From NCBI GenBank assembly GCA_048938295.1, contig JBHLMI010000027.1, positions 4,650 through 35,426 of the forward strand: 30,777 nt of DNA, written 5' to 3'. The notes beneath the pieces were generated by a model. That model was not told the DNA's origin and made no database searches. It was given only the letters and a program-made list of their open reading frames with translations. The DNA comes from Promethearchaeota archaeon. GTDB taxonomy: Archaea > Asgardarchaeota > Hermodarchaeia > Hermodarchaeales > Hermodarchaeaceae. The position numbers and the translations under genes were made by a program. Position 1 is the first letter of the stretch, and each line of letters begins with the position of its first letter. Of this stretch, positions 859-30,730 are shown piece after piece.

Positions 859-993
859 TGGTGGGCCGGCCGCGATTTGAACGCGGGATCACCTGAAAGG
901 GGACTACTACACCAAATAGTAGTCACGCCCCAGGCAGGCATCATACCAATCTAGCCAAAGGCAGCTGCCAGTCGGGATCTAGACCACCGGCCC
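859..993 (-). tRNA. tRNA-Pro(GGG) with two BHB introns. Exons 993-977, 948-926, 895-859; introns 976-949 (28 nt, 17/17a) and 925-896 (30 nt, 39/40)
   Basis: The spliced sequence GGGCCGGTGGTCTAGAT/TGGTATGATGCCTGCCTGGGGCG/CAGGTGATCCCGCGTTCAAATCGCGGCCGGCCCACCA folds as a cloverleaf with anticodon stem CCTGC/GCAGG, loop CT-GGG-GC and encoded CCA. Confidence 0.92.
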
Positions 994-1022
994 ATGAGCT
1001 TGACTCATAAACAAACGTGTCC

Positions 1023-2039
1023 TTATAACTGCTTTTCCTCAGCGGTCTCTTTTTTGTTGACATAACCTTCTGATACAAACCAATCAATGGCCCGCGTGAA
1101 TGTCTCAGCCATGCCCATCGTCGGTCTCCAACCCAGGAGTCGCTTAGCCTTCTCATTTGAATACCATCGCTCGGAATTCATCGCATCAACGGATTTCATA
1201 TGCCATAGATAAGTCCGTTTTCCTCGATATTTGAAAAGGCCAATCAACCCAACTCCAAGCTTAGCAAAGAATACAGGAACCTTTCTTTTCGGTGGCTCTA
1301 CCCCCAAGTGATTAGCCACGAACCGAAAGACCTCCTCATAGGTGAAAACATCATCTGGGCAAAGAAAGAAAGTTTCATTGACGCCATCCTTCGTTCGGAT
1401 TGCAGAAAGAAATCCTTGCACCAAATCATCAACATGCATGAACATGATGTGTTTTCGTCCATCACCCGGAATCATTGAAATATCTCTGTTCGCAATTGCC
1501 TTTATGGTTTCAAATCCCACATAGAATTCTCCCGGCCCAGTAACCCCCACAGGTCGAAGAACGATATATTCGAATCCGCCAACCGCCGCTCCCTCTCTGA
1601 CTACCTTTTCTGCTTCCACCTTACTTTTTCCATAATCATACATCGGGTTTAGCTCTGTTTCTTCTGTCGCAGGAGGATTTGTTACCACTCCAGTCGTTTC
1701 GCTAGTAGAACAGTAGATAAACCGTCTGACAGAGGACTTCTTACAGGCAGTCAATAGATTTCGAGTTCCTTCCACATTCACGCGGTAGAGTAAACCAACA
1801 TCCTTCGGATAGAAGTCAAACATTGCCGCCAAATGGATAACTATCTCAGCGCCATTGGCTGCATCTTCTAAAGACGCTAAATCAAAGAGATCTCCTTCAA
1901 CAAGACGAACTTCCTTAGGTATTCCCCTAACTTCACTTGTTTTCCTGACAAGAGCTGTGACATCATATTTTTCCTCAACTAACTTAGCTACAAGATTTCG
2001 TCCAATGAACCCAGTCGCGCCTGTAACAAAGATCTTCAT
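1023..2039 (-). CDS. NAD-dependent epimerase/dehydratase (extended SDR, DFR-like)
   Basis: N-terminal VTGATGFIG Rossmann motif, HLAA, and YGKSK (YxxxK) catalytic motif; 338 aa. Confidence 0.92.
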   Translation of the reverse strand: MKIFVTGATGFIGRNLVAKLVEEKYDVTALVRKTSEVRGIPKEVRLVEGDLFDLASLEDAANGAEIVIHLAAMFDFYPKDVGLLYRVNVEGTRNLLTACKKSSVRRFIYCSTSETTGVVTNPPATEETELNPMYDYGKSKVEAEKVVREGAAVGGFEYIVLRPVGVTGPGEFYVGFETIKAIANRDISMIPGDGRKHIMFMHVDDLVQGFLSAIRTKDGVNETFFLCPDDVFTYEEVFRFVANHLGVEPPKRKVPVFFAKLGVGLIGLFKYRGKRTYLWHMKSVDAMNSERWYSNEKAKRLLGWRPTMGMAETFTRAIDWFVSEGYVNKKETAEEKQL

Positions 2040-2050
2040 TAATTATCACC

Positions 2051-2635
2051 TCAAGGAGAATCATGATTGGTCGCCTTCCTCAAACTTTTCACCGCTAAAT
2101 CTCCATAAATCGGTCCTTTGGGAGTTAGAGTGCTTCTCTTAAGCTTAATAGCTCTCACCAAGAATTTTCCGAACTCTTTGTTTGCATATTTGTGAACCAT
2201 CTGCATAAGCTCTTCTCGATGCAATCCACTTCGGACTCTTAAAACCGTTAAATGTGGCGAATACTCACGCTTCTCCGAAGGGAATCCGTGAGCTCGAAGT
2301 TCCCGTCCGAGAAATTTCTGGTGTTCAATAAGTTGGTCTGCTCCTGTTGTTACACCAATCCAAATCACTCGGGGCCGTTGAGGACGAAAACATCCTACGC
2401 CGTTAAGGTCAACGTCAAACGCGGTTCCTTTCGCTTGTTCAATTATATTAGTAAGTTCTGGTATTCTTGCCTCATCGATGTTGCCCAAAAAATGGAGGGT
2501 AAAGTGAAGGTTTTGGGGTTCAACGAGCTTCAACTTTGCTCCGCTTGTTAGAAGCTCTTGCTGAATCTTGCCGATTTCTCGAACTAAATCCGAATCATCA
2601 ACTTCAACGGCGATAAAACATCGAATCCCTGCCAT
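2051..2635 (-). CDS. thpR: RNA 2',3'-cyclic phosphodiesterase / 2'-5' RNA ligase (2H phosphoesterase, LigT/ThpR)
   Basis: Starts RCFIAVE; two HxT motifs (HFTL, HLTV); PRVIWIG; STLTPKGPIY near the C-terminus. Confidence 0.92.
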   Translation of the reverse strand: MAGIRCFIAVEVDDSDLVREIGKIQQELLTSGAKLKLVEPQNLHFTLHFLGNIDEARIPELTNIIEQAKGTAFDVDLNGVGCFRPQRPRVIWIGVTTGADQLIEHQKFLGRELRAHGFPSEKREYSPHLTVLRVRSGLHREELMQMVHKYANKEFGKFLVRAIKLKRSTLTPKGPIYGDLAVKSLRKATNHDSP

Positions 2636-2735
2636 AAGATACCATCTCGCTGATTTGGTTGTAAATAAGCAGGAAACTTTATATCATTCTCCCTTCCCAA
2701 AGGCGAACAGCTTGCTTTTGGGAGGCATTGTTTGC

Positions 2736-3854
2736 TTGAAGACAAAGAAATCTTCTCGTACGCGGAAGCCGTTGGCTGAAATCTCTCGAACCTCTGGTGA
2801 ACCTCTAACTCAACAAATTGTTCCCGCAAGAGAAGTGATTTTACGACCCGCAGGCTATCCTCTTGAAGTTAATAGCACTCCGACTAATCCTTTACTTCAT
2901 ATACGGGATGAAAAGCTCTTTAGCGCATATGCTGTTGATCAATGGCAAGGCATCAAAGTCAAACCCACCGATTATTTGTTTGACCAATTGCTACTCCCAG
3001 ATTTCGCGTTTGAAGTCGTATCCGTTATCCCAACGGAAGCTCACATCGTTGCAGATACACAGATTCGACTTATTGAACCTCCCGATGAAGCTCCATCCAA
3101 AGGTCGTAGACTTGGATTCGAAGATGTAATTGGTCATGAAGATGCGAAAGCAAAATGCTTGATTATCCAGAAGTACATTGCCGACCCACAACGATTTGCT
3201 GAGTGGGCTCCTCGCCGAGTGCTATTTTATGGTCCACCTGGCACAGGAAAAACCATGCTAGCCCGAGCTCTTGCCTGGGAAACCCAAACTGAATTTGCCT
3301 ACATTAAAGCAACCTCTCTGATCGGACAACATGTTGGTGCAGGGGCGGACAAAGTCAATAAGCTCTTTGAAGACATAGTCCGAAATAAGCCGTGTATAGT
3401 ATTCATTGATGAAATTGATTCAATTGGACTCGATCGAGGTTTCCAATCTGTCCGAGGCGATGTAACCGAGGTGGTGAATTCGCTTATCTCACAATTCGAT
3501 CTCATCGAAGATCAAACAGGAGTTGTAGTCATCGCCGCGACCAATAGCCAAGACTTCCTTGACCCTGCACTTCGAAGCCGCTTTGAAGAAGAAATCTATT
3601 TTGACCTTCCTGATTATGAAGAGAGACTTCGAATTCTGCAGAAGTATTCATCAAGCCTGCCAATGCCTGTTGATGCAGATCTAGAATCGCTTGCTCGACG
3701 CACTGAAGGCTATTCTGGACGGGACCTAAAGGATCGCGTTCTAAAAGGTGCCCTACATCATGCTTTGGCAAAAGGGCTTACGGCTCTGGATGAATCGACC
3801 TTCAAACATGTTGAAATTATCCAATCGTCCAAAGACAAGAGTTTGTATAAGTAA
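2736..3854 (+). CDS. Archaeal AAA+ ATPase (COG1223-like, single AAA domain with N-terminal domain)
   Basis: Walker A GPPGTGKT, Walker B VFIDE, SRH AATN...LDPALRSRF. Start moved from the ORF-track 2568 to TTG 2736 because GGAGG lies at 2721-2725 and the longer start overlaps thpR. Confidence 0.85.
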   Translation: MKTKKSSRTRKPLAEISRTSGEPLTQQIVPAREVILRPAGYPLEVNSTPTNPLLHIRDEKLFSAYAVDQWQGIKVKPTDYLFDQLLLPDFAFEVVSVIPTEAHIVADTQIRLIEPPDEAPSKGRRLGFEDVIGHEDAKAKCLIIQKYIADPQRFAEWAPRRVLFYGPPGTGKTMLARALAWETQTEFAYIKATSLIGQHVGAGADKVNKLFEDIVRNKPCIVFIDEIDSIGLDRGFQSVRGDVTEVVNSLISQFDLIEDQTGVVVIAATNSQDFLDPALRSRFEEEIYFDLPDYEERLRILQKYSSSLPMPVDADLESLARRTEGYSGRDLKDRVLKGALHHALAKGLTALDESTFKHVEIIQSSKDKSLYK

Positions 3855-3888
3855 TCCTATCTACTGAACTGTGGTTATGTTGCCCGTA

Positions 3889-4437
3889 ATGAAAGCCCTC
3901 ATTTTCTGTGGCATGCCTGGCTCTGGAAAATCCATTGGTGCAACCGTTGCGAAAGACCTAGGAATTCCTGTTTTTGTAATGGGCGACGTAGTGCGTGAGG
4001 AAGTGACTCGACGGCAACTTCCACACACACCCCAAACACTAGGGCAAATCATGATTGAACTCCGTGAGCAGTTCGGACCAGCCGTAATCGCCCAACGAGT
4101 CATCGACAAACTTGAAGATGTTGCTGGTCCTTCAGTGGTTATTGATGGGGCAAGGAGCGAGGCGGAAGTGCAAGCCTTTAAAGAAGCCGTGAATCACGTA
4201 CTAGTCGTGGCAGTTCATGCTGCCCCTCAAATTCGATTTGAACGTCTACGCCAGCGAGGTCGTAAAGACGACTCGTTAACTGAGGCGCTATTGCGTGAAA
4301 GAGACAGTCGGGAGCTCGACATCGGATTAGGTCGGCTAATCGCGCAGGCTGACATAATGATCGTAAATGAAGGCGAATATGAAGAACTTCAAACAAAAAT
4401 CCGCCAGGTTCTGATGCAAGTCTTCGATTTAGTATGA
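3889..4437 (+). CDS. coaE: Archaeal dephospho-CoA kinase (P-loop kinase)
   Basis: GMPGSGKS P-loop, MGDVVR, VIDGAR and RGRKDD, typical of archaeal DPCK. ATG 3889 preferred to GTG 3871. Confidence 0.75.
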   Translation: MKALIFCGMPGSGKSIGATVAKDLGIPVFVMGDVVREEVTRRQLPHTPQTLGQIMIELREQFGPAVIAQRVIDKLEDVAGPSVVIDGARSEAEVQAFKEAVNHVLVVAVHAAPQIRFERLRQRGRKDDSLTEALLRERDSRELDIGLGRLIAQADIMIVNEGEYEELQTKIRQVLMQVFDLV

Positions 4438-4892
4438 TAAAGGAGGGATTACCGTTTATCTCCGTGAGATTATGGGCAGTTGTTAATCCCACAGAAGATA
4501 TGAAAAAAGTGCAGCAAGCCTTCGTGAATCTTTGCCCTCCAATAACTAGCGAGCTCAAAGAAGATCCTGAATTCGGAATGGTTCTAATAGGTACCGCTAC
4601 TGGACCCGCTTCTATTGCCGCATTTGCCAAGAAATTCCGCGAACAACGCATTCTCGAAGCAGTCAGACACCAATTGCTAAAATCTATTCAAAATGGATCC
4701 ATACTATTTGGGATGCAAAGACAAGCTGCCTACATGAATCGTTTTCACCTATGTGATTTAGATGATTATTCTGCAATGGGCCCTATTCGCGTTGAAATTC
4801 GAGCCAACAAAATACAAGATGTAATCGATTATATCAGTCCTCCAACGGCCAAAGGAAAACCTCAATTCCGCAACGATGTTCAACTGGATTGA
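4434..4892 (+). CDS. DUF54/UPF0201 family protein
   Basis: VNPTEDxxKV and QRILEAVR motifs; overlaps the DPCK stop, a common archaeal gene pair. Confidence 0.75.
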   Translation: MIKEGLPFISVRLWAVVNPTEDMKKVQQAFVNLCPPITSELKEDPEFGMVLIGTATGPASIAAFAKKFREQRILEAVRHQLLKSIQNGSILFGMQRQAAYMNRFHLCDLDDYSAMGPIRVEIRANKIQDVIDYISPPTAKGKPQFRNDVQLD

Positions 4893-4901
4893 AGAGTTGC
4901 T

Positions 4902-5828
4902 TCACGTTGATGGGGTTAGCTCTAAGCAATCTAAATCCTTAGGCACGAAACTTTGGGGGAAAATTGCTTTGGCTTCGTTTTCATGCTCTTCGGTGCTTGT
5001 ATAGCGTGGGCTGATGTGAACTAAAGCTAGATGCGCAACCTGCGCCTGTGCGGCAATTTGTGCCGCTTGGGCAGCTGTTGAGTGTAGATAGTTCTTTGCA
5101 TTCTCTGTATGGCTTGCTGTAAAAGTTGCGTCATGAATCAAAAGACTAGCATTCTTGGCTGCTTTGGCTAACTTGGGATTTGGAGCAGTATCTCCTGAAT
5201 AGACTATGGTAACTCCTTTACGGGTAGGACCCAATACATCTTCTGGTTTGACGTTTTTCCCATCGGGGGTTTGGATTGCATGCCCTTCACAGAGGCTTTT
5301 GCGAAGCGGACCTGAGGGTACACCCAGTTGCTGAGCTTTACTTACATCAAATTTTCCTGGGCTATCGGTCATTTGTAGAATATACGAAAGCGAGGGAACA
5401 CTATGAATTGCGGGTAAACATCGGACTTGATATTGCACTTGGTTGGAGATGATACCCTTCTCCACGTCCTTGGTTGTTAATTTAAAATCGAGCTGTACGT
5501 GGGTTAATTCCAGGCTGGTTTCGGTGAATTTCGTTGTGCCCTTTGGCCCAAAGATTGTCAAGGGCTTAGACCGATCCTGCATTACCATGGTCGAAATGAG
5601 TCCTGGTAATCCCAGAACATGGTCACCATGAAGATGGGTGATGTAAATTTCTCGAATCCGCTGTGGACTCAAACCTACTTTTCGCAATTGGAGCTGGGCT
5701 GCTTCACCACAATCGAAGAGTAAGAGTGTCCCTTGGAATTGGATTGCAATGGATGGCGGTGCTCGAGTCAAAGCTGGGATTCCTCCTCCAACCCCTAAGA
5801 AATGTACTCGAACCTTGGTGTTTGTCAT
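4902..5828 (-). CDS. rnz: Ribonuclease Z (tRNA 3' endonuclease)
   Basis: FDCGE, HLHGDH, exosite GVPSGP, SGDT, HDAT, HST and VHISPRY metallo-beta-lactamase motifs. Confidence 0.95.
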   Translation of the reverse strand: MTNTKVRVHFLGVGGGIPALTRAPPSIAIQFQGTLLLFDCGEAAQLQLRKVGLSPQRIREIYITHLHGDHVLGLPGLISTMVMQDRSKPLTIFGPKGTTKFTETSLELTHVQLDFKLTTKDVEKGIISNQVQYQVRCLPAIHSVPSLSYILQMTDSPGKFDVSKAQQLGVPSGPLRKSLCEGHAIQTPDGKNVKPEDVLGPTRKGVTIVYSGDTAPNPKLAKAAKNASLLIHDATFTASHTENAKNYLHSTAAQAAQIAAQAQVAHLALVHISPRYTSTEEHENEAKAIFPQSFVPKDLDCLELTPST

Positions 5829-5831
5829 AGA

Positions 5832-6890
5832 TTATTTTCGCTCCAGGACAACGATATGACGGTGGAGGCTTCGGTGAATCCGCATCGTATGCATTTCTTT
5901 GATTATGAAGCTTTCAGATGGTATCATATCCTCCCTGAAATATTCTAAAGGTAAGGCCAGACACAGAAAGCCACCGGGCTTCAAAATCGGTGCAAACGAA
6001 GCCAAACTATCTTTTATCAGCCTACTAATTGCTGCACCTTTTGTCGAACTGGATCGACCGTAAGGAGGATCCGTTGCAATCGATTCAACTCCGTTCCTCC
6101 GTATTGGTGGTTCCCGAGCGTCCGCTAGGCAGCCATAGAATGGAACCTTGAAATGGGTAAGATTCTGTTGGCTACCCGCAAGCATTGAAATGTCAATGTC
6201 AAACCCGACAGGAAGGCAACCGATTTCTGCTGCTTCAAGCAGAAGACCGCCAGTGCCACAGAACGGATCCAAGAACTCGCCTCCTTGTTTTGCACGGCTC
6301 AGATTCACCAAAACTCGGGCAATTTTCGGGTTGATAGCACTGGGAACAAAGAAAGGACGAAGCGGACTGCGCCTCTTTGAAAAGCCTCTTCGCTCCCGGG
6401 TTGCAAGATGGGGTCCGAAAAAGAACTGCTTACCATTAATAACACCAAGAAAAAGGACATCTGGTGAGGCTAAACCAATCTCGACCTGCCCGTCCATAGA
6501 CTGCCATATTTCTGAGCCAATCTTTCCTTGTAAATCATCCACATTGAATTCATCTGGTTCTTGTTTAATCCTGGTTACCTTTACACCAAAGCGACTTCCT
6601 GGACGAACCCACGAAGAAAAATCGATTCTCCGAAGTGCCTGGAGAATCGCTTCCTCCTCTGCAGCTGATTCAAAGACAACAACGCAAGCCTTGTTAACAA
6701 GTCCTGCTCTTAGAGTAGCTTTCTGTGCTCCCTTAGGGTCCACTTCCATTAGCAAAATACGTTTTTCCCTTCCCTTAACAGAATATGAAAACCCTTCAGA
6801 TTCTAATATTGCACAGAGCTCTGCTTGGGGTAAGGTATCATGTTCTCCCGAAAGAATGAATAGGCATAGTTGTCCACTTTGCTGAGTCAC
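5832..6890 (-). CDS. trm11: tRNA (guanine-10-N2)-methyltransferase (THUMP + Rossmann-fold MTase)
   Basis: N-terminal LSGEHDTLPxAE, THUMP-like region, RPFFVP, DPFCGTGG, TDPPYGR and C-terminal HRSLHR. Confidence 0.88.
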   Translation of the reverse strand: MTQQSGQLCLFILSGEHDTLPQAELCAILESEGFSYSVKGREKRILLMEVDPKGAQKATLRAGLVNKACVVVFESAAEEEAILQALRRIDFSSWVRPGSRFGVKVTRIKQEPDEFNVDDLQGKIGSEIWQSMDGQVEIGLASPDVLFLGVINGKQFFFGPHLATRERRGFSKRRSPLRPFFVPSAINPKIARVLVNLSRAKQGGEFLDPFCGTGGLLLEAAEIGCLPVGFDIDISMLAGSQQNLTHFKVPFYGCLADAREPPIRRNGVESIATDPPYGRSSSTKGAAISRLIKDSLASFAPILKPGGFLCLALPLEYFREDMIPSESFIIKEMHTMRIHRSLHRHIVVLERK

Positions 6891-7345: not shown

Positions 7346-7418
7346 TTGAATAATCCCTAGCAGTGGATAGAAATATGTGTAGGGTTTGTGGTCATATCAA
7401 GTGCTGAGGCGACTATTT

Positions 7419-9595: not shown

Positions 9596-9601
9596 CCTGA
9601 C

Positions 9602-10745: not shown

Positions 10746-11968
10746 TTGAACATTATTCATTTAATTCTGCTACCGTCTTTTCAAACCATTACAGAATCTG
10801 GGTGTAACCCTACACCCTCTATCCCGTCCACGACAAAAGCTTCCGGGACTGCTTTTCGACCAATATTGTATCCACCATTAACATCTGCATTTATTATATG
10901 ACCCTTGGATGAGCGGAATAATCCTCTTTCAATTCTCTTGCCAATATAGCTATGTTGATGTTTGATTGGCTCTTCATCGAGGAAGCTCACTTTTGAGGTA
11001 TGACTCTCATCAACTAGAATCAGGTCAATACCTACCATTTTGGCTTTGTATTTTATTTGTCGAACAAGTGTCAAAAATGGTATGCCTACGAAATTCTGGT
11101 TTATCCGCTTACCTAAACCGATGTACTGTTTCCACATCGGATTATATCCAACAACAATTGCTCCAAAACCATGAACCATGCAATAGGAGATAATCTGGCG
11201 AGAGACCTTATGAAAGAAATCGATAATTTTGTTCGTTCGTTTCAGTAACAATCGCTGCAGTCGACGTGTCTGAAACCCTAATCCTTGTTTATCTCGGATC
11301 GAAATGAGTCGTGCTCTTTCTTTGTTATAATATTGATTGACGGATTTGATAACCCCGCCTTTAACACGCCAAGGCTTTAACCCTGCGTTGTTGACCACAG
11401 TTACAAGATTATTCAGTCCTAAATCAATACTAATAACACGACTTGAATCAAGTTCTAAATCAATAGGGTTTTTCTCATATACAATTTCTAAAATGTAATG
11501 GTTGCCTTTGGGAATAATTCTGACATGACGGAATGATCCACGTATTCGAGTTTTTATAGGCAGTAAATGAGCTTTTTTCGGAAACCATAGAAGCCCGTTT
11601 TTGATATTACATTGTTGATTTGTGAAGATTATGAGAGTTTCTCCATTTTTCGGTTTGTATCGCGGTAACCTTGGGCGCCCTAAATATTTCTCTGGATGAA
11701 TCTTCCAATCCTTAAGAGTAATAAAGAAAGCCTTCCAATTCTGGTCTAGCCGACGAAGTACTTGTTGAGCAGTCTGTAATGGAAGGTTTCGATATGCACT
11801 TGTGGTTTTTAGTAGACTATACAATTCTCCATATCTAATCCAACGACCTTGAAAAATGAAAGTTTGACGAATGTGATAATTAGCTAGATTATAGAGGTTC
11901 TTTGCTAGGTGGCATAGTTTCGAAATTGGCAGAGATGGGCGAAGCTGAATACGTTCAGTAAGATACGT
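10746..11968 (-). mobile_element. Solo IS200/IS605-family (IS1341-like) tnpB element, no tnpA
   Basis: tnpB ORF; omega-RNA-type hairpin GGGTGTAG-GGT-TACACCC overlapping the ORF 3' end; candidate right end TTCAA at 10750-10746, 35 nt after the stop. Left end not identified. Confidence 0.7.
10781..11968 (-). CDS. tnpB: TnpB (tnpB1), about 395 aa, rearranged RuvC-II type
   Basis: Frame extends upstream of the ORF-track start: (T)YLTERIQLRP...CHLAKNLYNLANY. RuvC-I SIDLG, VVGYN, VDESHTS and RuvC-III NADVNG. The likely start is ACG (11968-11966), 7 nt after GGAGG. Confidence 0.85.
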   Translation of the reverse strand, partial: TYLTERIQLRPSLPISKLCHLAKNLYNLANYHIRQTFIFQGRWIRYGELYSLLKTTSAYRNLPLQTAQQVLRRLDQNWKAFFITLKDWKIHPEKYLGRPRLPRYKPKNGETLIIFTNQQCNIKNGLLWFPKKAHLLPIKTRIRGSFRHVRIIPKGNHYILEIVYEKNPIDLELDSSRVISIDLGLNNLVTVVNNAGLKPWRVKGGVIKSVNQYYNKERARLISIRDKQGLGFQTRRLQRLLLKRTNKIIDFFHKVSRQIISYCMVHGFGAIVVGYNPMWKQYIGLGKRINQNFVGIPFLTLVRQIKYKAKMVGIDLILVDESHTSKVSFLDEEPIKHQHSYIGKRIERGLFRSSKGHIINADVNGGYNIGRKAVPEAFVVDGIEGVGLHPDSVMV

Positions 11969-14381: not shown

Positions 14382-14732
14382 GTGGACGATGAACCCCGAC
14401 GGTCGTCAACCCTCCCTGAAGCCGTACTCACAGCCAGGTCTCAGACCCGGATCTCGGAAGCATCTACAGTACAGGCTTACGCTGCTCCCTCCCGGGCCTA
14501 GCTGGTTTCACCCGATAAAGACGATTCAGCCCTTCCTACGAAAAGCCTACCGCCACCAGCGATCCTCCGAGGCGGATCATCACAGCCTTAAACAGTGAGT
14601 CGTACAACAGGTCAGAAAGCCTAACATCGGCATTCAGCCCGCCGTATAGAGCGTTTGCGGTGCAGGGGAGCCTTAGCCAGCCCGTAGCGGTGCTGCCGGG
14701 CTTCTAGCCCCCCGCCTAGGCTCACCGTCCAC
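14382..14732 (-). ncRNA. ffs: SRP (7S) RNA with a putative 31-nt BHB-type intron (14703-14673)
   Basis: Helix 1 GTGGACGGTGAGCC/GGTTCATCGTCCAC; helix 6 with a GTAG tetraloop; helix 8 CTAGGCCC-GGGA-GGGAGCAGC. Length 351 nt, or 320 nt after removing the insertion. Confidence 0.93.
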
Positions 14733-15897: not shown

Positions 15898-16006
15898 TGG
15901 TGGGCCGAGAGGGACTCGAACCCTCGACCATCGCGGTGTAAGCGCGATATCATAGCCCTCTAGTCTAAGAGAATATCCTCCTCTCAGATAGCTAGACTAT
16001 CGGCCC
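15898..16006 (-). tRNA. tRNA-Val(TAC) with a 32-nt D-loop BHB intron (15989-15958, 17/18)
   Basis: Spliced GGGCCGATAGTCTAGCT/GGCTATGATATCGCGCTTACACCGCGA...CCCACCA. BHB: CTAG/CTAG helix, bulges CTA and AGG, intron stem TCTGAGAG/CTCTTAGA. Confidence 0.93.
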
Positions 16007-21393: not shown

Positions 21394-21411
21394 CTACAAA
21401 TTTGTTTGTCA

Positions 21412-22705
21412 TCACAATTCATCGAAAGTGTGGATGCGCATTTTCGCCGGTTTCTTTACAATGTTGCCAACTCGCACCCCAATAATTAATTCGACGCCAC
21501 GATCTTCGGCAATATCAATGAGGCGTTGTGTGATAACGCCATCTAAGATAAGCACTTTAGCTTTATCGAGTTCTTGCAAATCGTTAGCCAGTTCACCCAC
21601 GTGGGTTTCCTTTAACTGTTTAAACTTCTCATCTATGATGACTGCCATCATCGTCTGTTGAATCTTTTGAGCAGAATCAAGCACCGGCTTTGGGATTCCC
21701 AAATCCTTCATCTTTGGCTCTGGTTTTCTTTCAGCTGTCATTCGTGTGCTAGAGGCAGTACGCGTGGGTGTTCGCCGCTGTTTCTTTGCCTTCTCAGGAG
21801 TTCGACGTGTACGTTTCTTCTCCTTCGGTTTCGCTTTTACTGGTGCTTTTCCTAATACCTGCTCTGCTGGAATCTTATTACGTAGGGCTTTAGTAATCTC
21901 TTTGTGAGTGAGCTCCTCTACTTCTCTACCAGTAGGTGCTCTAGCCACATAATCAACCTTGATGGTCTGTGCAAGTTCTTTTAGAATTAAATCTCCACCG
22001 CGATCACCATCGAGAAATGCAATCACACTTTTATCCTTGGCAATGTCAGCGATAGATTTAGGAATCGATGTCCCCTCAACTGCAACAGCATTCTTGACAC
22101 CAGATCTCAACAGGGCTAAGACATCCGCTCGGCCCTCTACAATGATAATGATCTTTGATGTCTCTACCTCTGGTCCCGCAGGAAGTCTTTCTTTACCAAA
22201 TTTGATAATCTCTGCAGTTCTTGCCTGTTGAAGAACCGTATCTGTCATTTCCTGAGAATCCGGAGAGATTTCCCCTTCCCAGTCCCGTAGCAAATCTACT
22301 GCACGATTCACAATTTGTTGCCGCTTTTCTTCGCGGACATCCTCGAGTTTTTCAAGGGTTATTTTAGCTGCACAGGGGCCAACTCTGTCCACTGTTTCCA
22401 TCGCGGCTGCAAGGATTGCTGTTTCAGTCCGATCTAGACTACAGGGGATAGTGATGGTGCCCTTTGATTTTCCACTCTCAGTGTGAAGCTCGACTTTTAT
22501 TCGACCAATCCGCCCCGATTGTTGTAATTCTCTTAGATCTAAATCTTCACCGATTACCCCTTCACATCGCTGATATGAAGTGTAGGCCCTCTGTTTGACC
22601 GAAGAGAGCACCTACGACATCGGGGGTCTCAACTACTCCATCTATCTCGATTTTACCATGAATACAATACTTCGTAGTACCAGTACCTTCTGCATTTGCT
22701 CCCAT
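21412..22705 (-). CDS. dnaG: Archaeal DnaG (exosome-associated, TOPRIM), interrupted by a 28-nt BHB intron. Exons 22705-22582 and 22553-21412; 421 aa spliced
   Basis: Exon 1 reads [16 protein letters not shown]...[17 protein letters not shown]. Exon 2 continues (L)[18 protein letters not shown]...IVEGRADV...FLDGDRGG...APTGREVE. The ORF track sees only exon 2. Confidence 0.93.
22554..22581 (-). other. BHB intron in dnaG mRNA
   Basis: GCCT-AC|A-CTTCATATC-AGC-GATGTGAAG-GGGT-AA|T: 4-bp helix, two 3-nt bulges and a 9-bp intron stem; contains an in-frame TGA. Confidence 0.88.
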
Positions 22706-24491: not shown

Positions 24492-24500
24492 ATCCTGAGG

Positions 24501-25364: not shown

Positions 25365-25744
25365 CTGAATGATTATAATCTAAAGAAGTGATGGGTCGCT
25401 TCTGCTCTGCTGACCGATACACTAACGCCCCATCATCATCGGTGGGCAGAGCGCCTTTATTCCTCCGACGGGTCCTCTCTTAATATGTCGGGCATTATGA
25501 GCCTATGCGACCCGGCGTTGAAGTGTGGACATCGTGGGTTGCCCCCGCAGTCACCTCATGACGACACGTCATAAATCATGCAGGAGCCTGTCACATGCCG
25601 CATAACCCTCAACGCTGCTCCAGTGTTGCCACAAATTTGCACGAATCATCATCAGATTGTAGTCTTCGGATTCGTCCTCGTTGGTGGCTATTATCCTTTC
25701 ATTGCCTACAAACAAACGTAAACGGTTCCTCAAAAAAGCTTCCA

Positions 25745-26239
25745 CTATTGACTTGGAACACCATGGTAGATAATCCGTCCATCTCGATCAATCTGCCCCG
25801 CTCGGATGCGTGTGGATGAAATTGAGATCTGGTCTTCCGCTTTAACCATGGTCAGAACGGCGATGTGTAAAAGAGACAGCTTGTACTCGCGGCGTATTTC
25901 ATTGATTTCTTTTGCGACTGGGCAAGTTTCTTCACTGACAACAATCAGTTCGAGCTCCGGCATCGTGATGGCAGGTCCGTATTTGTTGTGAAGTGGTCGA
26001 ATAATATAACGTCCACTATACCCTTCGCTTTCTAACCATTTTTCTAGTTCCTCTTTGCGCTCGTCATAACTGGCGATTATTTCCCAATCAGGCTTATGCA
26101 TGACCATATCCTGTGTGGTTAACCCAATAAGCACCTGCTTGCCCAACTCGAAGGCCCTGCGAAGTAGTGTTTTGTGTCCCTTATGTAGACGGTCGAAGGT
26201 TCCACCGATGGCTGCCCATTCATATGGCACTTCAGACAC
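25745..26239 (-). CDS. coaD: Phosphopantetheine adenylyltransferase (archaeal)
   Basis: GGTFDRLHKGH, GLTT, IVVSEET and ISSTRIR. The start is uncertain (GTG 26239 or TTG 26317). Confidence 0.88.
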   Translation of the reverse strand: MSEVPYEWAAIGGTFDRLHKGHKTLLRRAFELGKQVLIGLTTQDMVMHKPDWEIIASYDERKEELEKWLESEGYSGRYIIRPLHNKYGPAITMPELELIVVSEETCPVAKEINEIRREYKLSLLHIAVLTMVKAEDQISISSTRIRAGQIDRDGRIIYHGVPSQ

Positions 26240-26319
26240 GATGCAGTCCTCATGTCTTGCTTTTATATTCTGTTGAAAAAGCTTTACCACAAGCCAAAAT
26301 TTGATTGCTGATGGCAATG

Positions 26320-27423
26320 CTACCCGATGCCGATGGTGTTGCCGATGCCTGCGATGATGATGGTGTCACCCTTCGTTGTCCGCAAACGGACTGCATTTTT
26401 CATCCGTTCAACAGCTTTAGGAACTGCGTCAACGAGAGATTTCTTCATCGGTGCAAGCGCATCTTCTAATGACTCTTTGATGACAATCGCGTCGATGGGG
26501 ATTTTGTACTTGACAGCAGGATCCTCCATCTTGAATTTCTCAGGTCCTGGATCGCCAATTGCGGCACCAACGCCTTCAATCACTTGTCCAGTGTCTTCCC
26601 CTTCAAGTTTTAGTCCGGCATCAACGGTGATGATACGGGCAATTTTTCCTTTTTTGCGTTCAACTACTTTCTTTATGCCCTCACCGGGCTTACCAACTTG
26701 GCTTCCGAATCCCTTTGCACGGACAAACCATAAGGTCCGTCCTTCAAATTCACCGGAAAAAGCAACCGTGTGTTCTGCAATTTCTTCGGGCTCTCCTGCC
26801 TTGATTTCTCGAGCGAAGTGAGTAACTGCAAGGGGACCCATGCCATCACCTATGGGTTTGCCATCGGCAAAAGCGCGGGTAGCCTCAAAGTACGCTTTAG
26901 CCATCTGAATAATCATGGGTAATTGCATCTGAAGCTGCATAGTATAGTAGATGCTTTTGGTCTTCTTACCCAAAAGCAAGAAATGACGGACAACCCGATA
27001 CACGTAATGAAGGGACATAGCTCCTGAAAGCACAGCTTCGGCGTTTGCCTGTTGTTCTGGGGTAGCCTTTGGGATGACCCGTGCAACATGCTCCTCATAC
27101 CGTGTTGTTCTGACATCAAGGACATGCTCCAATCGCTGCAATACACCCGCCGGGTCCAGGTTGACAGGTTCAATGATGAAAAATTCCATGAAATCATCGA
27201 CGGTTGACTTGAGGTCTTTTTCTTCAATCTTCAAATCCTTGAAGGTCTTGGTGGCAATATTCTTGCCCTGTGTTGCTAAGACTTCAAGCTGTCTCAAGCC
27301 CGCTTCTGCTTGTCGCTGCCAAATGTAGGATTGTAGTCTGGTTCCATACAGATAGATGAACATGAAAAAGACCAGAAAGATGATCTGGAAAATCCAATTG
27401 AAATCAGCAAATTGCAACATCAT
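26320..27423 (-). CDS. DUF1512 family protein
   Basis: N-terminal TM, FFIIEPVNLDP, GxPIGDGMGP, DAGLKLEGE and IAGIGNTIGIG. Confidence 0.85.
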   Translation of the reverse strand: MMLQFADFNWIFQIIFLVFFMFIYLYGTRLQSYIWQRQAEAGLRQLEVLATQGKNIATKTFKDLKIEEKDLKSTVDDFMEFFIIEPVNLDPAGVLQRLEHVLDVRTTRYEEHVARVIPKATPEQQANAEAVLSGAMSLHYVYRVVRHFLLLGKKTKSIYYTMQLQMQLPMIIQMAKAYFEATRAFADGKPIGDGMGPLAVTHFAREIKAGEPEEIAEHTVAFSGEFEGRTLWFVRAKGFGSQVGKPGEGIKKVVERKKGKIARIITVDAGLKLEGEDTGQVIEGVGAAIGDPGPEKFKMEDPAVKYKIPIDAIVIKESLEDALAPMKKSLVDAVPKAVERMKNAVRLRTTKGDTIIIAGIGNTIGIG

Positions 27424-27523
27424 TTGTCACAGGATTCTGGCTAATGCCGGAACGGAATCAAGGCAAAATAAAAACCTTTGCTTACAGTCAACCCTCCACT
27501 CCTAGCATAAAGAAAGGAAAAGA

Positions 27524-27645
27524 AGTGGCGCAGTTCACGCTTTTCCCGACACCTCGCGGATATCAGTACTCAGAGCGACGAAACCGGCTTAACTTCCGGG
27601 ATCTGACGAGACCGGGTGTGACCCAGCTTCTATGACCGCGCCACC
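27524..27645 (-). rRNA. rrf: 5S rRNA (stand-alone)
   Basis: 122 nt; terminal helix GGTGGCGCGGT/ACTGCGCCACT; conserved CACACCCG...CCCGGAAGTTAAGCC; followed by a U-rich tract. Confidence 0.93.
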
Positions 27646-27665
27646 CAGCAGGATTCATCCTTGCC

Positions 27666-27672
27666 TTAAAAA
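27666..27672 (-). promoter_or_regulatory. TATA box of the 5S rRNA gene
   Basis: TTTTTAA 21-27 nt upstream of the 5S 5' end. Confidence 0.6.
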
Positions 27673-27700
27673 TGTTGTGAACTCCTCTCACCGAAAAAAC

Positions 27701-27836
27701 TGGTGGGCCGGCCGAGATTCGAACTCGGGACCACGAGGTCCCAAACCTTGCGAGAAAAACAGAACCCGTTTTCCTTCTCGCATCATACCGCTCTAGTCCA
27801 GCACATATTGTAACTGGATAACTAGACTACCGGCCC
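27701..27836 (-). tRNA. tRNA-Pro(TGG) with two BHB introns. Exons 27836-27820, 27790-27777, 27746-27701; introns 27819-27791 (29 nt, 17/17a) and 27776-27747 (30 nt, 30/31)
   Basis: Spliced GGGCCGGTAGTCTAGTT/CGGTATGATGCGAG/GTTTGGGACCTCGTGGTC...CCGGCCCACCA; anticodon stem CGAGG/CCTCG. Confidence 0.92.
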
Positions 27837-27930
27837 GATGCGCGTAAAGGAACAGACGGGTACTTGATAAATCTTATCTAGAAACTTCTTGCTACAATCT
27901 ACTTTCAATTATACCAGGGTCTCTGCAGAA

Positions 27931-27949
27931 AATAAAACCCGGTTTTATT
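27931..27949. repeat. Inverted repeat AATAAAAC-CCG-GTTTTATT, candidate subterminal hairpin of the tnpB2 element
   Basis: Perfect 8-bp inverted repeat about 70 nt upstream of tnpB2. Confidence 0.35.
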
Positions 27950-28017
27950 ATTTTCTACCTGAGTGATGCATTGTGGCTCTATTCGAAAGACAACCGAATT
28001 GGACTAAAGCACATCTT

Positions 28018-29349
28018 ATGAAAACAGATTTCATAACGCGAACGGTATGGTCACGTTTACCGAATATATCTAAAAATTTAGTCAGAAAATTGCGTCGTAT
28101 ATACACAAGAGCAATTAATGTTTTTTTGATTGACTTAGAAGAAAACAAAGGAAGCATCAAAGAAACTTATCACGAACTTCGTAACAATGAATAGTTTTCA
28201 AAATTATCCGCGAAAATGCTTAACCAAGCATCACAGGAAGCATTTGTTTGGTTTAATTTAAGACGAAAGGAGAGAGTTCTAACAGATCAAGAAATACAGA
28301 ATTGGACAAAATGGGCAAAGAAACAAGGCATTGCGAATTTTGATCCCTCACAAAGTCTTCCAAGATTAATTTCTCACTCCGATTATCTTAAAGGACGGCC
28401 AGGAAAAAAACACGGTCAATGGCCGCAGACAGCAATTGATGGTGCACGGTTTTACATTGATTCAATTACGAATAATATTCTAGTGTCAATCGATAAAGTT
28501 GCTAAGAGAACCCAGGTTGTAATTGGTGGAGAACCTGAAAAGCTTCTTCGCCAAGCAATTTCTGGTATACTATCACTGAAAATCGGTTCTTCACGGCTTC
28601 TTGTCAAAGACGGAGTTACACAAATGGCTACTCCTATCCGAGTATCTGTTAATATTCCAGATATTTCAAGCCTTGAACAGCCAACGCTGATAGGTGTGGA
28701 TCTAGGACTAAATACATTAGCTGCTGTGGTTGCGCTAACTTTTGATCGAAGGATCCACCCAGCCAAATCGATCTCTGGAAAACAACTCAAACACCGTTTA
28801 GCATCACTTTGGGCAAAACGAAAAAACGCCGCACGCAAACAAAAATCAGAAAGTATACAAGATATCGATGAAAAGACACAACGAGTAATCCAATATTGGA
28901 TTCATGTGACAGCAAAAGCAGTAATTAACTATGCAAGTCAGTTCCCACATCCAATAATCGTTCTAGAAGATCTTCGAAATTATATTCCAACGAAAAAGCG
29001 AACTCGATGGGCAAGTTCCTCAATGAGAGACCAGCTTAGTAAATGGGCGCGGGGAAGACTCTTTGAAGCAATTTGTATGAAAGCTAGTCTACGTAATTTA
29101 CCTGTAATCAGAGTCAATGCAGCATATTCTTCTCACGTCTGCCCTAGACAATGTCTTTGTCTTCTACCTCAAGGATATTTCGAAGTGTTTCACTGTCCTG
29201 CATGTGGCGCAAAAGTTCCACGAGACATTAGTGCAGCTACTGAAATTGCACGTCGTGGTCTTCATCAGGTTACAGACAATAAAGTGCAGAACTCTAAGGT
29301 TCTTGGCAACGAGAACACATCATCCTTGACCCAATCAGCGGCAGGATGA
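28018..29349 (+). pseudogene. tnpB: TnpB/Cas12f-like nuclease (tnpB2), 443 codons, with in-frame TAG at codon 59 (28192-28194)
   Basis: ORF-track 27973-28194 and 28216-29349 are in the same frame, separated only by TAG. N-terminus MKTDFITRT...YTRAIN; RuvC IGVDLG, VLED, RDISAA; zinc finger CPRQC...CPAC. Confidence 0.7.
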
Positions 29350-29350
29350 T

Positions 29351-29503
29351 CGGGGCTATGGAAAGGGCCCTGAATAGGAGCGGTTAAGACCGTTAAGTAG
29401 TAAATTCTCTTGCTTGGCAAGGGAATTAGTGTAAAGGCATGGATAACCTTCGGCACCGGTCCTCCAAATTGGTATGGAGATTCAATGGCAATCACATTGA
29501 AAC
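29351..29503 (+). ncRNA. Candidate omega-RNA/tracr-like scaffold downstream of tnpB2
   Basis: Five consecutive hairpins directly after the stop, ending in ATTGAAAC. Confidence 0.45.
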
Positions 29504-29668
29504 TCAGATACACACTTTCGGGTATGATGCGAGCAAACAAAACCAGAAATAACTCTGTAGAAAGAAATCTATGGAAAAATACAGACCGAACTAGACTACC
29601 GGTCCAGTTCCCGAAAGGGTACAATCGGAAGTTCAAAAACCTTTGTCCAATTTAGGTGTTCCGATAGG

Positions 29669-30316
29669 TCATGCTTCAGTTAATCTACTGATGGGGAACC
29701 GGATGTAGTAGTAAGGTTTTCCATCTGTGTAATTGACTCTTGGGGATCTCGAAATGATATCGAAATGTTTCTTTAAAAGGCGAACAAGTTCCTTCAGAAA
29801 ATTCTTATCGCGCTGTTTTAACTGAACCCGTTTTCTCGTTAAGGAACCATCCGTGTCAATCAAACCAAACATGTAATGTTTGAAAAGAAATGGATCTTTT
29901 GCAATCAAGGAGGGTACCCTCATATTTTGTTTCTTCCCAGATTGAAAGCCCAATTTATTGAAGAAGAAGTAAGCTGCTGCACGCTGGATGTTTATGGCAT
30001 AGCAGTTCTTCTTTCTCTTATCTCGCAGAACACGCGGTTGAAAATCAAAGAGGTCCTTGACTAGCACCGATAATTGTTTTAGGTAATTTTTCCGACCAAC
30101 AACCTTTACTCGATAATGATAACCGCCTTTCCTTCGTTGGCACTTATTCAGGTTGCCATCACCCGCAACAACACCAGCAAAATATGCAACCTTATCACTA
30201 ATTTCCGGAATTTTTGTCTTTGATTTTTTGGTGCAGATGAAATCCTTCTGAATCCTGTGCCAAACACCTGCTTCATCTAAAGCCTGTGAAATTGAATGTA
30301 TTTTGACACCCTTCAT
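29669..30316 (-). CDS. Free-standing double-motif LAGLIDADG endonuclease-like protein (about 215 aa)
   Basis: YFAGVVAGDGNL and YMFGLIDTDGSL motifs; basic. ATG 30316 is used because the ORF-track start lies within tRNA-Thr. No intein or intron flanks were seen. Confidence 0.8.
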   Translation of the reverse strand: MKGVKIHSISQALDEAGVWHRIQKDFICTKKSKTKIPEISDKVAYFAGVVAGDGNLNKCQRRKGGYHYRVKVVGRKNYLKQLSVLVKDLFDFQPRVLRDKRKKNCYAINIQRAAAYFFFNKLGFQSGKKQNMRVPSLIAKDPFLFKHYMFGLIDTDGSLTRKRVQLKQRDKNFLKELVRLLKKHFDIISRSPRVNYTDGKPYYYIRFPISRLTEA

Positions 30317-30363
30317 TCTTAGTGTGTTCTTTACAAAATTGTCTAAAAACTCGTTATTTGAAA

Positions 30364-30438
30364 TGGAGCCTCCGCCGGGATTTGAACCCGGGACCATTGG
30401 CTTACAAGGCCAACGCACCACCACTATGCTACGGAGGC
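30364..30438 (-). tRNA. tRNA-Thr(TGT), intron-less
   Basis: Acceptor GCCTCCG/CGGAGGC, anticodon stem TTGGC/GCCAA with loop CT-TGT-AA, U73 and CCA. Confidence 0.95.
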
Positions 30439-30540
30439 TTATTTGAAGGTATACCTGCTCAATAGATTAATCATTCGGAGAAGGTGGGTGTGTTTGGAAT
30501 CGGATGCATATAAGCCAAAAAATGTTTTGCCATCCGAGAG

Positions 30541-30579
30541 AGCTGCTGGTCGTGGGTTCAATCCCCGCTCGAGGCTCCA
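30541..30579 (+). tRNA. Orphan tRNA 3' half (nt 38-76), probably Thr(CGT)
   Basis: A-GCTGC-TGGTC-GTGGG-TTCAATC-CCCGC-TCGAGGC-T-CCA. No 5' half in the adjacent sequence; preceded by CGAG-AG (BHB half-site) and followed by a T-rich tract. Confidence 0.7.
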
Positions 30580-30610
30580 TTTTCTTATTTTCAAGTAGAC
30601 TTTCAAGACT

Positions 30611-30617
30611 AAAAAAA
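30611..30617 (-). terminator. Oligo-T terminator after tRNA-Leu
   Basis: T7 run 2 nt downstream of CCA. Confidence 0.55.
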
Positions 30618-30619
30618 GA

Positions 30620-30730
30620 TGGTGCGGGGGCCGGGCTTCGAACCCGGGAACTCCTACGAGACAGGATCTTAAGTCCTGCGCCTTTGACCAAGCTTGGCTG
30701 TGGGGTCTACGAATGGGTAGATACCCCCGC
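30620..30730 (-). tRNA. tRNA-Leu(TAA) with a 23-nt BHB intron at 8/9 (30722-30700)
   Basis: Spliced GCGGGGGT/AGCCAAGCTTGGTCAAAGGCGCAGGACTTAAGATCCTG...CCCCCGCACCA. Strict BHB: GGGG/CCCC helix, bulges GTA and ACA, stem TCTAC/GTAGA. Confidence 0.9.

Follow-up and report, generated by a model that had tools for sequence, protein, structure and literature searches.

Hairpin inserts in four tRNA genes, the SRP RNA gene and dnaG

The window, i.e. the whole stretch of 30,777 nucleotides analysed here (contig JBHLMI010000027.1 of the Promethearchaeota archaeon assembly GCA_048938295.1), contains four interrupted tRNA genes, the SRP RNA gene and dnaG, which encodes the archaeal DnaG primase. A preliminary description of this DNA had proposed eight hairpin introns of 23-32 nt in these genes; all eight were found in place on the minus strand and all are of the BHB type. 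The BHB core consists of a 4-bp central helix and two 3-nt bulges on opposite strands, located beside the intron helix. Motifs in which an outer exon helix is present were classified as strict (hBHBh'), those with an outer helix of 0-1 bp as relaxed. The core was present in 8/8 inserts, four of them strict and four relaxed, and such an array is far beyond chance. For splicing in silico, the RNA was cut after the second bulge base (marked by a bar in the motifs below) and the exons were joined.

The tRNA-Pro(GGG) gene (859..993), whose CCA is encoded, carries two introns and scored 119.0 in ARAGORN as tRNA-Pro(ggg) with both inserts removed. One of them follows position 17 in the D-loop (949-976, 28 nt, relaxed) with a central helix CUAG/CUAG, bulges AU|C and AU|U and an outer helix of 1 bp; here, the splice variant 17-45 belongs to the best ARAGORN solution. 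The other, at 39/40 (896-925, 30 nt), was matched by the strict scan as hBHBh' (GGGG CG|U, 9-bp stem, CCCU UU|C), and its removal generates a C31-G39 pair and the 7-nt anticodon loop CUGGGGC. The tRNA-Val(UAC) gene (15898..16006) gave only a partial Rfam match when unspliced and an ARAGORN score of 121.3 when spliced. Its single D-loop intron (15958-15989, 32 nt, strict scan match) forms an hBHBh' motif with CUAG CU|A, a 10-bp stem, CUAG AG|G and an outer helix of 5 bp. Two introns interrupt the tRNA-Pro(UGG) gene (27701..27836, ARAGORN 120.2 spliced), which has the 5S rRNA gene (27525-27643) directly downstream. They are located in the D-loop (27791-27819, 29 nt, relaxed; CUAG UU|A, 5-bp stem, CUAG AG|C) and in the anticodon stem at 30/31 (27747-27776, 30 nt, strict scan match, hBHBh'; UGCG AG|A, 10-bp stem, CGCA AG|G). 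The tRNA-Leu(UAA) gene (30620..30730; partial Rfam match, ARAGORN 117.5 spliced) contains one intron at 8/9 (30700-30722, 23 nt), a strict scan match with the hBHBh' motif GGGG GU|A, 5-bp stem, CCCC AC|A. As stated earlier, none of the six tRNA introns lies at 37/38. The window also contains two intronless tRNA genes, Ser(GCU) and Thr(UGU).

The SRP RNA gene (14387..14727, Archaea_SRP, 123.1 bits at an Rfam cut-off of 96.5) is colinear with positions 1-317 of the Rfam model and has its insert in the helix-3 hairpin. This intron in the helix-3 loop of the Alu domain (14673-14703, 31 nt) is relaxed and reads GGCU AG|A, 6-bp stem, GGCU AA|G. The insert length is 32 nt by Rfam and 31 nt by the BHB rule. 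In dnaG (21412..22705), an intron of 28 nt (22554-22581, relaxed) separates exon 1 (22582-22705) from exon 2 (21412-22553) inside the motif GQTEGLLG, splitting a Leu codon as C|UC; it is composed of GCCU AC|A, a 9-bp stem and GGGU AA|U, with an outer helix of 1 bp. Relaxed motifs, and central helices closed by G.U and U.G pairs in SRP RNA (GGCU/GGCU) and dnaG (GCCU/GGGU), had also been described before and were found again here.

Predicted splice products and conservation of the inserts

The four tRNAs spliced in silico reached ARAGORN scores of 117.5-121.3, which is the range of the genome's intronless tRNAs. Three congeners (G002, G011 and G014) have intronless tRNA-Pro(UGG) genes at this locus, and their sequence is the same as that of the mature tRNA predicted here. 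These genes also confirm both junctions, GUCUAGUU|CGGUAUGAU in the D-loop and GCGAG|GUUUGGG at 30/31. The tRNA-Leu(UAA) intron occurs at the same site in 10 recovered genes of genus g1 (G000 included), among which its stem covaries (UCUAC/GUAGA, UCUCC/GGAGA, UCAC/GUGA), and is reduced to a mini-intron of ~14 nt in the sister genus. Presumably, these tRNA precursors are spliced in the organism.

Removal of the dnaG intron leads to a product of 421 aa with a Toprim domain, in which exon 1 and exon 2 match positions 1-29 and 32-419 of the DnaG equivalog model NCBIfam NF003108 consecutively, and restores the conserved motif containing GQTEGLLG. The unspliced frame runs into a stop six codons past the junction; production of the primase would thus depend on the tRNA-splicing enzymes. 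The intron was found at one site in 18/18 family genomes searched, with lengths of 28, 29 or 31 nt, and at the same site in 12 named Hermodarchaeota contigs. All of its 16 sequence variants keep the stem and all central-helix pairs, and the stem shows compensatory double changes (CUUCA/UGAAG to CUUUA/UAAAG). In two other Asgard families an intron interrupts this dnaG motif 10 nt further upstream; in the loci examined from Bathyarchaeia, Thermoproteota and Micrarchaeia the motif is uninterrupted. From these observations we infer that the dnaG mRNA is spliced.

The spliced SRP product GGGGGGCUAG|GGCUCCCC equals the helix-3 hairpin of intronless relatives. The insert is present in 16/16 SRP genes found in the family. 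In relatives, C opposite G has changed to U in the stem, and a G-C pair replaces G.U in the central helix. In another family (f12), a perfect BHB intron lies 2 nt further on and gives the same mature SRP hairpin. In our reading, the non-tRNA introns are old; they have become fixed in the family, where selection preserves their ability to fold, and in other Asgard families comparable introns arose close to these positions in the dnaG motif and the SRP loop.

Other explanations were considered for both non-tRNA inserts. The broken frame of unspliced dnaG with its early stop would also be expected of a pseudogene, or of an insert due to frameshift mutation or misassembly, the primase being non-functional or encoded elsewhere. 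This is highly improbable, as the insert occupies the same base in all 18 family genomes, which were independently assembled, and in the 12 named contigs, and its hairpin covaries and differs in length while the exons are unchanged. Moreover, both exons are under purifying selection, with many synonymous changes and an exon 1 protein that is 92-98% identical within the genus, and a second dnaG was not found in the genome, each genome giving a single match. The stable hairpin with an in-frame stop that follows the break point likewise recalls phage T4 gene 60, and ribosomes might pass over it by translational bypass or programmed frameshifting. We consider such a bypass scarcely conceivable: the take-off codon CUA has no counterpart at the landing site, bypass cannot create the second Leu codon, which arises as C|UC only by joining across the junction, the three insert lengths exclude a fixed frameshift, and the flanks are folded as in this genome's tRNA introns, with a 4-bp helix and 3-nt bulges.

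For the SRP RNA, a stable hairpin at a loop with an irregular outer helix could represent a lineage-specific expansion retained in the mature molecule, the more so as two families (f7 and f10) have, between SRP helices 3 and 4, an additional hairpin that forms no clean BHB. Several observations make this very unlikely. In SRP Alu domains the helix-3 loop pairs with the helix-4 loop, and it is this pairing partner in which the insert is located. The perfect and differently placed intron of f12 yields an identical mature hairpin. Finally, in assembled metatranscriptome contigs (not raw reads) from three studies, the match to the SRP gene ends at 14678, at the 3' junction, and none of the contigs enters the intron. 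One of them goes on with window positions 14710-14721, i.e. 12 bases past the joint into the 5' exon, skipping 31 nt; this contig is ~93% identical and thus belongs to a related species, and its joint is read from the contig itself, as the tool did not list it. Apart from the SRP gene, RNA cover in the metatranscriptomes examined was limited to the end of one tRNA. What is directly observed is the geometry, the exactness with which the products are restored, the conservation and covariation, the encoded enzymes and RNA contigs that lack the SRP intron; the eight inserts are very probably archaeal BHB introns spliced by EndA and RtcB in four tRNAs, SRP RNA and dnaG.

Distribution and turnover of introns in the genome

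The preliminary description had inferred a genome-wide invasion by an active and promiscuous gain process reaching beyond tRNAs, with many frameshifted genes being spliced and further in-frame introns hidden in intact-looking reading frames. It had placed this in the context of Thermoproteales, which does not hold, as the organism belongs to the Hermodarchaeota, the label its nearest relatives bear, and these are Asgard archaea. The range of hosts was confirmed: tRNA, SRP RNA and mRNA carry introns, at least 16 of them in 12/25 recovered tRNAs, and two further mRNA introns were identified genome-wide besides that of dnaG. One interrupts a Rab-like GTPase gene, whose exons match positions 1-29 and 32-158 of the Ras profile and whose junction is spanned by 28 paralogues; the other lies in a CoA-transferase gene with exons matching CoA_trans positions 3-46 and 78-216. 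These additional mRNA cases, together with the RNA contigs that lack the SRP insert, agree with the earlier expectation of splicing outside tRNAs and run counter to what the preliminary description itself would have taken as a refutation, a genome devoid of other non-tRNA cases and dnaG and SRP inserts that are not spliced.

The inferred extent of the process was not supported. Frame-restoring BHB candidates are not enriched (359 found versus ~430 expected at random positions) and only three of them pass the protein-level checks, i.e. three mRNA introns in 2.5 Mb. BHB splicing in this genome is rare outside tRNAs. As for hidden in-frame introns, nearly all BHB look-alikes that paralogues allowed to be checked align to these without a matching gap and are translated sequence. 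Ongoing promiscuous gain might nevertheless be suspected from the different intron sites in the same dnaG motif and SRP loop of other families, and from the tRNA-Pro(UGG) locus, where three intron states occur inside one genus, including a 37/38 intron in G013 only. Against it, the introns of dnaG and of the SRP RNA each occupy a single, fixed position in every family genome where the gene was found. No pair among the genome's 20 introns is more alike than shuffled controls (best local score 11; shuffled maximum with a mean of 9.9 and a 95th percentile of 12), and no other copy of the G013-specific intron was found within 3 mismatches in five genomes. Species-level turnover was seen at tRNA-Pro(UGG) only, where the intron states agree with the haplotypes upstream and not with the species tree. 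This points to allele replacement, which probably accounts for the turnover at this locus instead of de novo insertion or loss. An ongoing invasion of all RNA classes is thus unlikely.

Splicing enzymes, proposed pathway and known systems

Determination of the EndA type, proposed in the preliminary description as a check, revealed two subunits. The alpha subunit (186 aa) has the catalytic Tyr/His/Lys residues, matches the Aeropyrum catalytic subunit 3P1Z_B (E 2e-45) and shows no gap against Aeropyrum EndA across the loop (…YGkPLgirKPk…). The non-catalytic beta subunit (196 aa) lacks the His. RtcB is encoded as well (E 1.5e-170). A broad-specificity (alpha-beta)2 EndA with a Crenarchaea/Asgard-specific loop (L1) has been reported for Asgard archaea (PMC5829648). 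An enzyme of broad specificity would be needed here, since 4/8 motifs are without a proper outer helix and those of dnaG and SRP RNA contain two G.U pairs each. EndA and RtcB are presumably the acting enzymes.

In the pathway which we propose, the central helix of each precursor RNA would consist of four exon bases paired to four of the intron, flanked by the two 3-nt bulges on opposite strands beside the intron hairpin. An (alpha-beta)2-type EndA would cut each bulge behind its second base, and the exons would be joined by RtcB. The outcome would be functional forms of the four tRNAs, a normal helix-3 hairpin in the SRP RNA and an intact primase encoded by the dnaG mRNA. One can further speculate that in Asgard archaea a still-operating, structure-directed process inserts BHB introns into any transcribed RNA offering half a motif, possibly by running the EndA/RtcB reaction in reverse and then copying the product back into DNA. 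Such a process would explain the independent introns 10 nt apart in the dnaG motif and 2 nt apart in the SRP loop as well as tRNA alleles differing in introns between sister species, but we regard it as quite improbable. If it were true, these archaea would provide a prokaryotic model for the first interruption of protein-coding genes in the ancestor of eukaryotes.

The tRNA introns resemble those of known archaeal multi-intron tRNAs, with several introns per tRNA, positions other than 37/38, many of them in the D-arm, strict and relaxed BHB forms, and repeated gains across lineages. Sequence-similar intron pairs reportedly mark tRNA-intron transposition in Thermoproteales; unlike there, such pairs were not seen among the 20 introns of this genome. 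A preprint on Asgard tRNA introns, searched for both terms, mentions neither mRNA nor SRP. Publications dealing with mRNA or SRP RNA introns of other Asgard genomes were not found.

Maturation of SRP RNA by a BHB endonuclease and a ligase is also required in Thermoproteus, where the SRP RNA is circularly permuted (Plagens 2015, PMC4731332). In contrast, the gene described here is colinear and loses a 31-nt intron without permutation or circularisation. For Haloferax, a systematic search for substrates of the splicing endonuclease is described, with BHB motifs recognised in tRNAs and also in precursors of rRNA (PMC7714728); the abstract of that study names tRNA and rRNA maturation and not, as here, a frame-restoring intron in a coding sequence.

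The closest precedent is the cbf5 pre-mRNA intron of Crenarchaeota (Watanabe 2002; Yoshinari 2006; Yokobori 2009, PMC2738675; cited in PMC5829648 and PMC12397907). Common to both are a short BHB intron within protein-coding sequence, a probable link to a heteromeric (alpha-beta)2 endonuclease, and gain and loss between lineages. They differ in the host, which is an Asgard archaeon and not a crenarchaeon, and in the genes concerned, here dnaG, a Rab-like GTPase and a CoA-transferase, whereas cbf5 is uninterrupted (TruB_N match at C9:3538-3879 in one open frame of 300 aa, no stops). Furthermore, the dnaG motif is relaxed, with a 1-bp outer helix and two central G.U pairs. The introns described here extend a type of splicing which has been published for one archaeal protein gene only, namely cbf5.

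Placing of the inserts and the mature tRNAs

The minus strand was read and scanned for bulge-helix-bulge (BHB) geometry, that is, a 4-bp helix with 3-nt bulges, one per strand, plus an internal hairpin. The observation of eight inserts made in the preliminary description was confirmed, as all of them could be placed: six in tRNA genes (949-976, 896-925, 15958-15989, 27791-27819, 27747-27776 and 30700-30722), one in the SRP RNA gene (14673-14703) and one in dnaG (22554-22581). Strict hBHBh' motifs, in which the outer exon helix is present, were found for 4/8 inserts; the outer helix measures 0-1 bp in the other four, namely two D-loop introns and the SRP and dnaG inserts. As described before, none of the six tRNA introns occupies the 37/38 site. 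Three of them, all located after D-loop position 17, share a CUAG/CUAG central helix, and the remaining three lie at 8/9, 30/31 and 39/40. The wobble-closed central helices reported for the two non-tRNA inserts were likewise recovered as GGCU/GGCU (SRP) and GCCU/GGGU (dnaG).

After removal of the introns at the BHB cut sites, ARAGORN scored tRNA-Pro(GGG) at 119.0, Val(UAC) at 121.3, Pro(UGG) at 120.2 and Leu(UAA) at 117.5, the range for the intronless tRNAs of the host genome being 112.9-122.0. At the same locus, tRNA-Pro(UGG) is intronless in the congeners G002, G011 and G014 and identical to the predicted mature sequence over both junctions. The 8/9 intron of tRNA-Leu is found at the same site in all 10 genes recovered from the genus, the host included, and its 5-bp stem shows compensatory pair changes. 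In the sister genus (L103-L106), the tRNA-Leu(UAA) 8/9 intron comprises only about 14 nt and adopts a bulge-helix-loop form devoid of an inner hairpin; such an intron would be a naturally occurring minimal substrate of the endonuclease.

Standard tools applied to the window gave an incomplete picture: ARAGORN reported two intronless tRNAs, and Rfam added a partial tRNA and the SRP RNA with an insert of about 32 nt. The ARAGORN intron option mis-assigned multi-intron tRNAs (Gln, Lys and Pro(GGG) were called with wrong introns) and Infernal detected neither tRNA-Pro gene. A genome-wide tRNA census anchored on T-arm and acceptor stem yielded 28 hits, one being a duplicate register of tRNA-Met, and 25 confident tRNAs. 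At least 16 introns, mostly at non-canonical sites, reside in 12 of these 25; about half of the tRNA set is missed by tRNA finders. A lone tRNA 3' fragment (30541-30592, plus strand) with T-arm, acceptor strand TCGAGGC, discriminator T and CCA is located between tRNA-Thr and tRNA-Leu. A genome-wide search for the matching 5' half found none, and the fragment could be an integration-site remnant or one half of a split tRNA.

The window (45% G+C) is archaeal DNA from a genome of 2.52 Mb in 66 contigs. As the closest dnaG relatives among named records belong to MAGs carrying the label Candidatus Hermodarchaeota or Hermodarchaeum yapensis, the host is an Asgard archaeon, which replaces the earlier Thermoproteales framing. 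RNA-processing genes are abundant in the window and include aTrm56, Trm5/TYW2, TtuA, a THUMP-type methylase, LigT and archaeosine TGT C-terminal domains.

Interrupted dnaG and SRP RNA genes and the splicing enzymes

DnaG is an essential protein in replication and RNA degradation. Unspliced, the gene provides a 399-aa ORF without N-terminus, while the N-terminal peptide is encoded upstream in another frame which runs into a stop six codons later. Splicing at GCCU AC|A … GGGU AA|U joins C|UC to a Leu codon, restores a conserved motif and yields a protein of 421 aa. The broken frame might also be read as a pseudogene, an artefact or a site of ribosomal bypass, and these readings have to be weighed against the following observations. 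The NCBIfam DnaG equivalog is matched by exon 1 at positions 1-29 and by exon 2 at positions 32-419. The insert occurs at the same base in 18/18 genomes of the family and in 12 named Hermodarchaeota contigs, with lengths of 28, 29 or 31 nt and 16 sequence variants. Every variant preserves the stem together with all four central pairs, double compensatory changes included, and each genome searched contained a single dnaG match. Because of these exon matches, the conservation, the covariation and the single dnaG match, pseudogene, artefact and bypass are all very unlikely, and removal of the insert as an intron is the preferred reading.

No insert breaks the dnaG motif in the loci examined from Bathyarchaeia, Thermoproteota and Micrarchaeia, or in six other Asgard families. 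Families f3 and f7, also Asgard (L027, L029, L030), carry a BHB-like dnaG insert of 32-34 nt within this motif; it lies between the Gln and the Thr/Leu codon, 10 nt upstream of the site occupied in Hermodarchaeota, and its central helix begins with GGCC.

The SRP insert was found at the same place in 16/16 SRP genes recovered from both genera of the family. SRP RNAs of relatives in other families measure 311-319 nt, and their helix-3 hairpin (e.g. GGGGAGCUAGGGCUUCCC) matches the predicted spliced product GGGGGGCUAG|GGCUCCCC. Family f12 possesses a different, perfect BHB intron with an outer helix of 8 bp, which is located two bases further on and leads to the same mature hairpin. As both non-tRNA introns are fixed across the family, they are old.

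The SRP RNA occurs in metatranscriptome studies of mangrove, wetland and soil. Metatranscriptome contigs from four runs containing the SRP gene were aligned to the window, and none of them enters the SRP insert. These runs gave no coverage of dnaG, and a search for RNA data sets with an 8.7-kb stretch found none. The match ends at 14678 in contigs from three studies, and one contig from a related species proceeds past this position into CCCCGCCTAGGC, corresponding to 14710-14721, so that 31 nt are skipped. The jump from 14678 to 14710 equals removal of 14673-14703, because 5/6 bases repeat at both borders. This junction was read by hand from the unaligned end of the contig, no joint being called automatically, and its far side extends over only 12 bases before adapter sequence begins. 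These contig-level data favour removal of the SRP intron and are supportive rather than conclusive. SRP RNAs of families f7 and f10 (L037-L039) contain an extra hairpin of 16-27 nt between helices 3 and 4, which shows no clean BHB and could represent either an expansion segment or a very relaxed intron.

Two subunits of the tRNA-splicing endonuclease EndA, whose type the preliminary description had proposed to determine, are encoded by the host (on C1 and C19), one catalytic and one lacking the His. The alpha subunit (186 aa) carries the catalytic residues Tyr/His/Lys; its closest match is the catalytic subunit of the heterotetramer from Aeropyrum (E 2e-45), with which it aligns gapless through the loop region. 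For the His-less paralogue (196 aa), matches were obtained to the structural, N-terminal half of fused EndAs and, at a weak level, to models of beta subunits. The ligase RtcB is encoded as well. Splicing of the BHB introns in tRNAs, SRP RNA and dnaG mRNA by EndA and RtcB is very likely. Apparently, an entire Asgard family can produce its primase and its SRP RNA only after cutting and rejoining by tRNA-splicing enzymes. An (alpha-beta)2 EndA type with an L1 loop was reported for Asgard archaea (PMC5829648).

Introns in protein-coding genes across the genome

A BHB core scan of both strands of all contigs delivered 100,301 candidates, which were filtered for those whose removal joins two open, coding-like and otherwise broken frames. 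Frame restoration alone was passed by 2571 candidates versus about 2733 at random positions, and addition of a hexamer coding score left 359 versus about 430. Hence, the filter is not specific, as the number of passing candidates is no higher than random. Only three mRNA introns were upheld among the tight-hairpin candidates, namely those of dnaG, a Rab-like GTPase and a CoA-transferase subunit. The GTPase intron (30 nt, C44:22827-22856) separates exons matching positions 1-29 and 32-158 of the Ras profile, and alignments to 28 paralogues cross the junction gapless. The CoA-transferase intron (32 nt, C22:36428-36459) lies between exons matching positions 3-46 and 78-216 of CoA_trans. In gene calling, these three genes will appear truncated or split.

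Judged from their junction peptides, most frame-restoring candidates are ordinary boundaries of neighbouring genes (e.g. MCM/MeaB and TldD/PmbA, as well as the sites where a GH38 mannosidase gene and a DUF99 gene start). TnpB-like candidates at C7:48632 and C33:111544 are decayed IS copies, for which paralogue alignments need 7-15 gap columns. Candidate C50:11192-11218 (minus strand) is a GNAT acetyltransferase gene with an in-frame TAG and sensible read-through, hence no intron; the protein looks normal if the TAG is read through (…EKGYPSS*TWTFFSFQAPEFY…), and the TAG may stem from an error in sequencing, from recoding of the stop codon or from decay to a pseudogene. In-frame BHB look-alikes within ORFs numbered 367, and nearly all of those that could be compared with paralogues align gapless; near-full paralogue gaps were seen at three (C23:905, C23:40372 and C35:5000).

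The proposed genome-wide invasion stands insofar as introns do interrupt tRNAs, SRP RNA and mRNAs, but it is overstated for mRNAs with their three surviving cases. Neither the expectation that many frameshifted genes are spliced nor that of in-frame introns hidden in intact ORFs was borne out by these scans.

Intron turnover at tRNA-Pro(UGG) and relation to known introns

No similarity beyond that of shuffled sequences was detected in pairwise comparisons of 20 introns of the host genome. The tRNA-Pro(UGG) gene (loci L063-L072; window 27701-28040) exists in three states within the genus: with D-loop and 30/31 introns in six species, intronless in three, and with a single 37/38 intron in G013; only the D-loop intron is present in the sister genus. 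In the dnaG tree, G013 is sister to the two-intron G010, and the intronless G002 belongs to a tight trio with the two-intron G005 and G006. Over 200 nt on its downstream side, the locus agrees with this tree, with 94-96% identity within those groups, while the 200 nt upstream fall into two haplogroups tracking intron state rather than the species tree. Because upstream haplogroups match intron state while the downstream sequence matches the dnaG tree, the three states point to recombinational replacement of the 5' part of the gene and its promoter rather than clean insertion or deletion, and suggest a breakpoint in or beside the gene.

A TnpB/IS605-family gene (28216-29349, plus strand) is located directly upstream of tRNA-Pro(UGG), and a LAGLIDADG-type homing-endonuclease ORF, whose longest reading overlaps tRNA-Thr, is found at 29669-30424 (minus strand); mobile DNA is therefore present exactly where the upstream haplotypes diverge. 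A second TnpB gene is located at 10781-11824. A distance of 57 nt separates the tRNA-Pro(UGG) gene from the 5S rRNA gene that follows it downstream on the same strand (27525-27836, minus), and both may be co-transcribed. The 37/38 intron of G013, the best candidate for a recent gain, sits on an intronless-type haplotype, and no second copy of it was found in five genomes. This picture of turnover fits a recent preprint on Asgard tRNA introns that describes numerous gains but no general path of entry, and in which a term search found no mention of mRNA or SRP RNA.

The interest of these introns lies in the Asgard host and in the essential genes involved. Asgard archaea, the nearest relatives of eukaryotes known so far, offer material on intron origins, and the recurrent interruption of the same dnaG motif in different families, together with the allele differences at a tRNA locus, provides concrete cases for the entry of introns into genes. 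In full-text searches of the literature, BHB introns in archaeal coding sequences were documented only for cbf5; for SRP RNA, these searches yielded the permuted gene of Thermoproteus and no endonuclease-type intron. The present analysis adds the dnaG intron, the SRP site in helix 3, the RNA contigs and the polymorphism at tRNA-Pro. Whereas cbf5 is the classical host gene of such introns, it is uninterrupted in this genome, and dnaG, a Rab-like GTPase gene and a CoA-transferase gene are interrupted instead. The published class of endonuclease-type introns is extended to new coding-sequence hosts beyond cbf5 and to SRP RNA.
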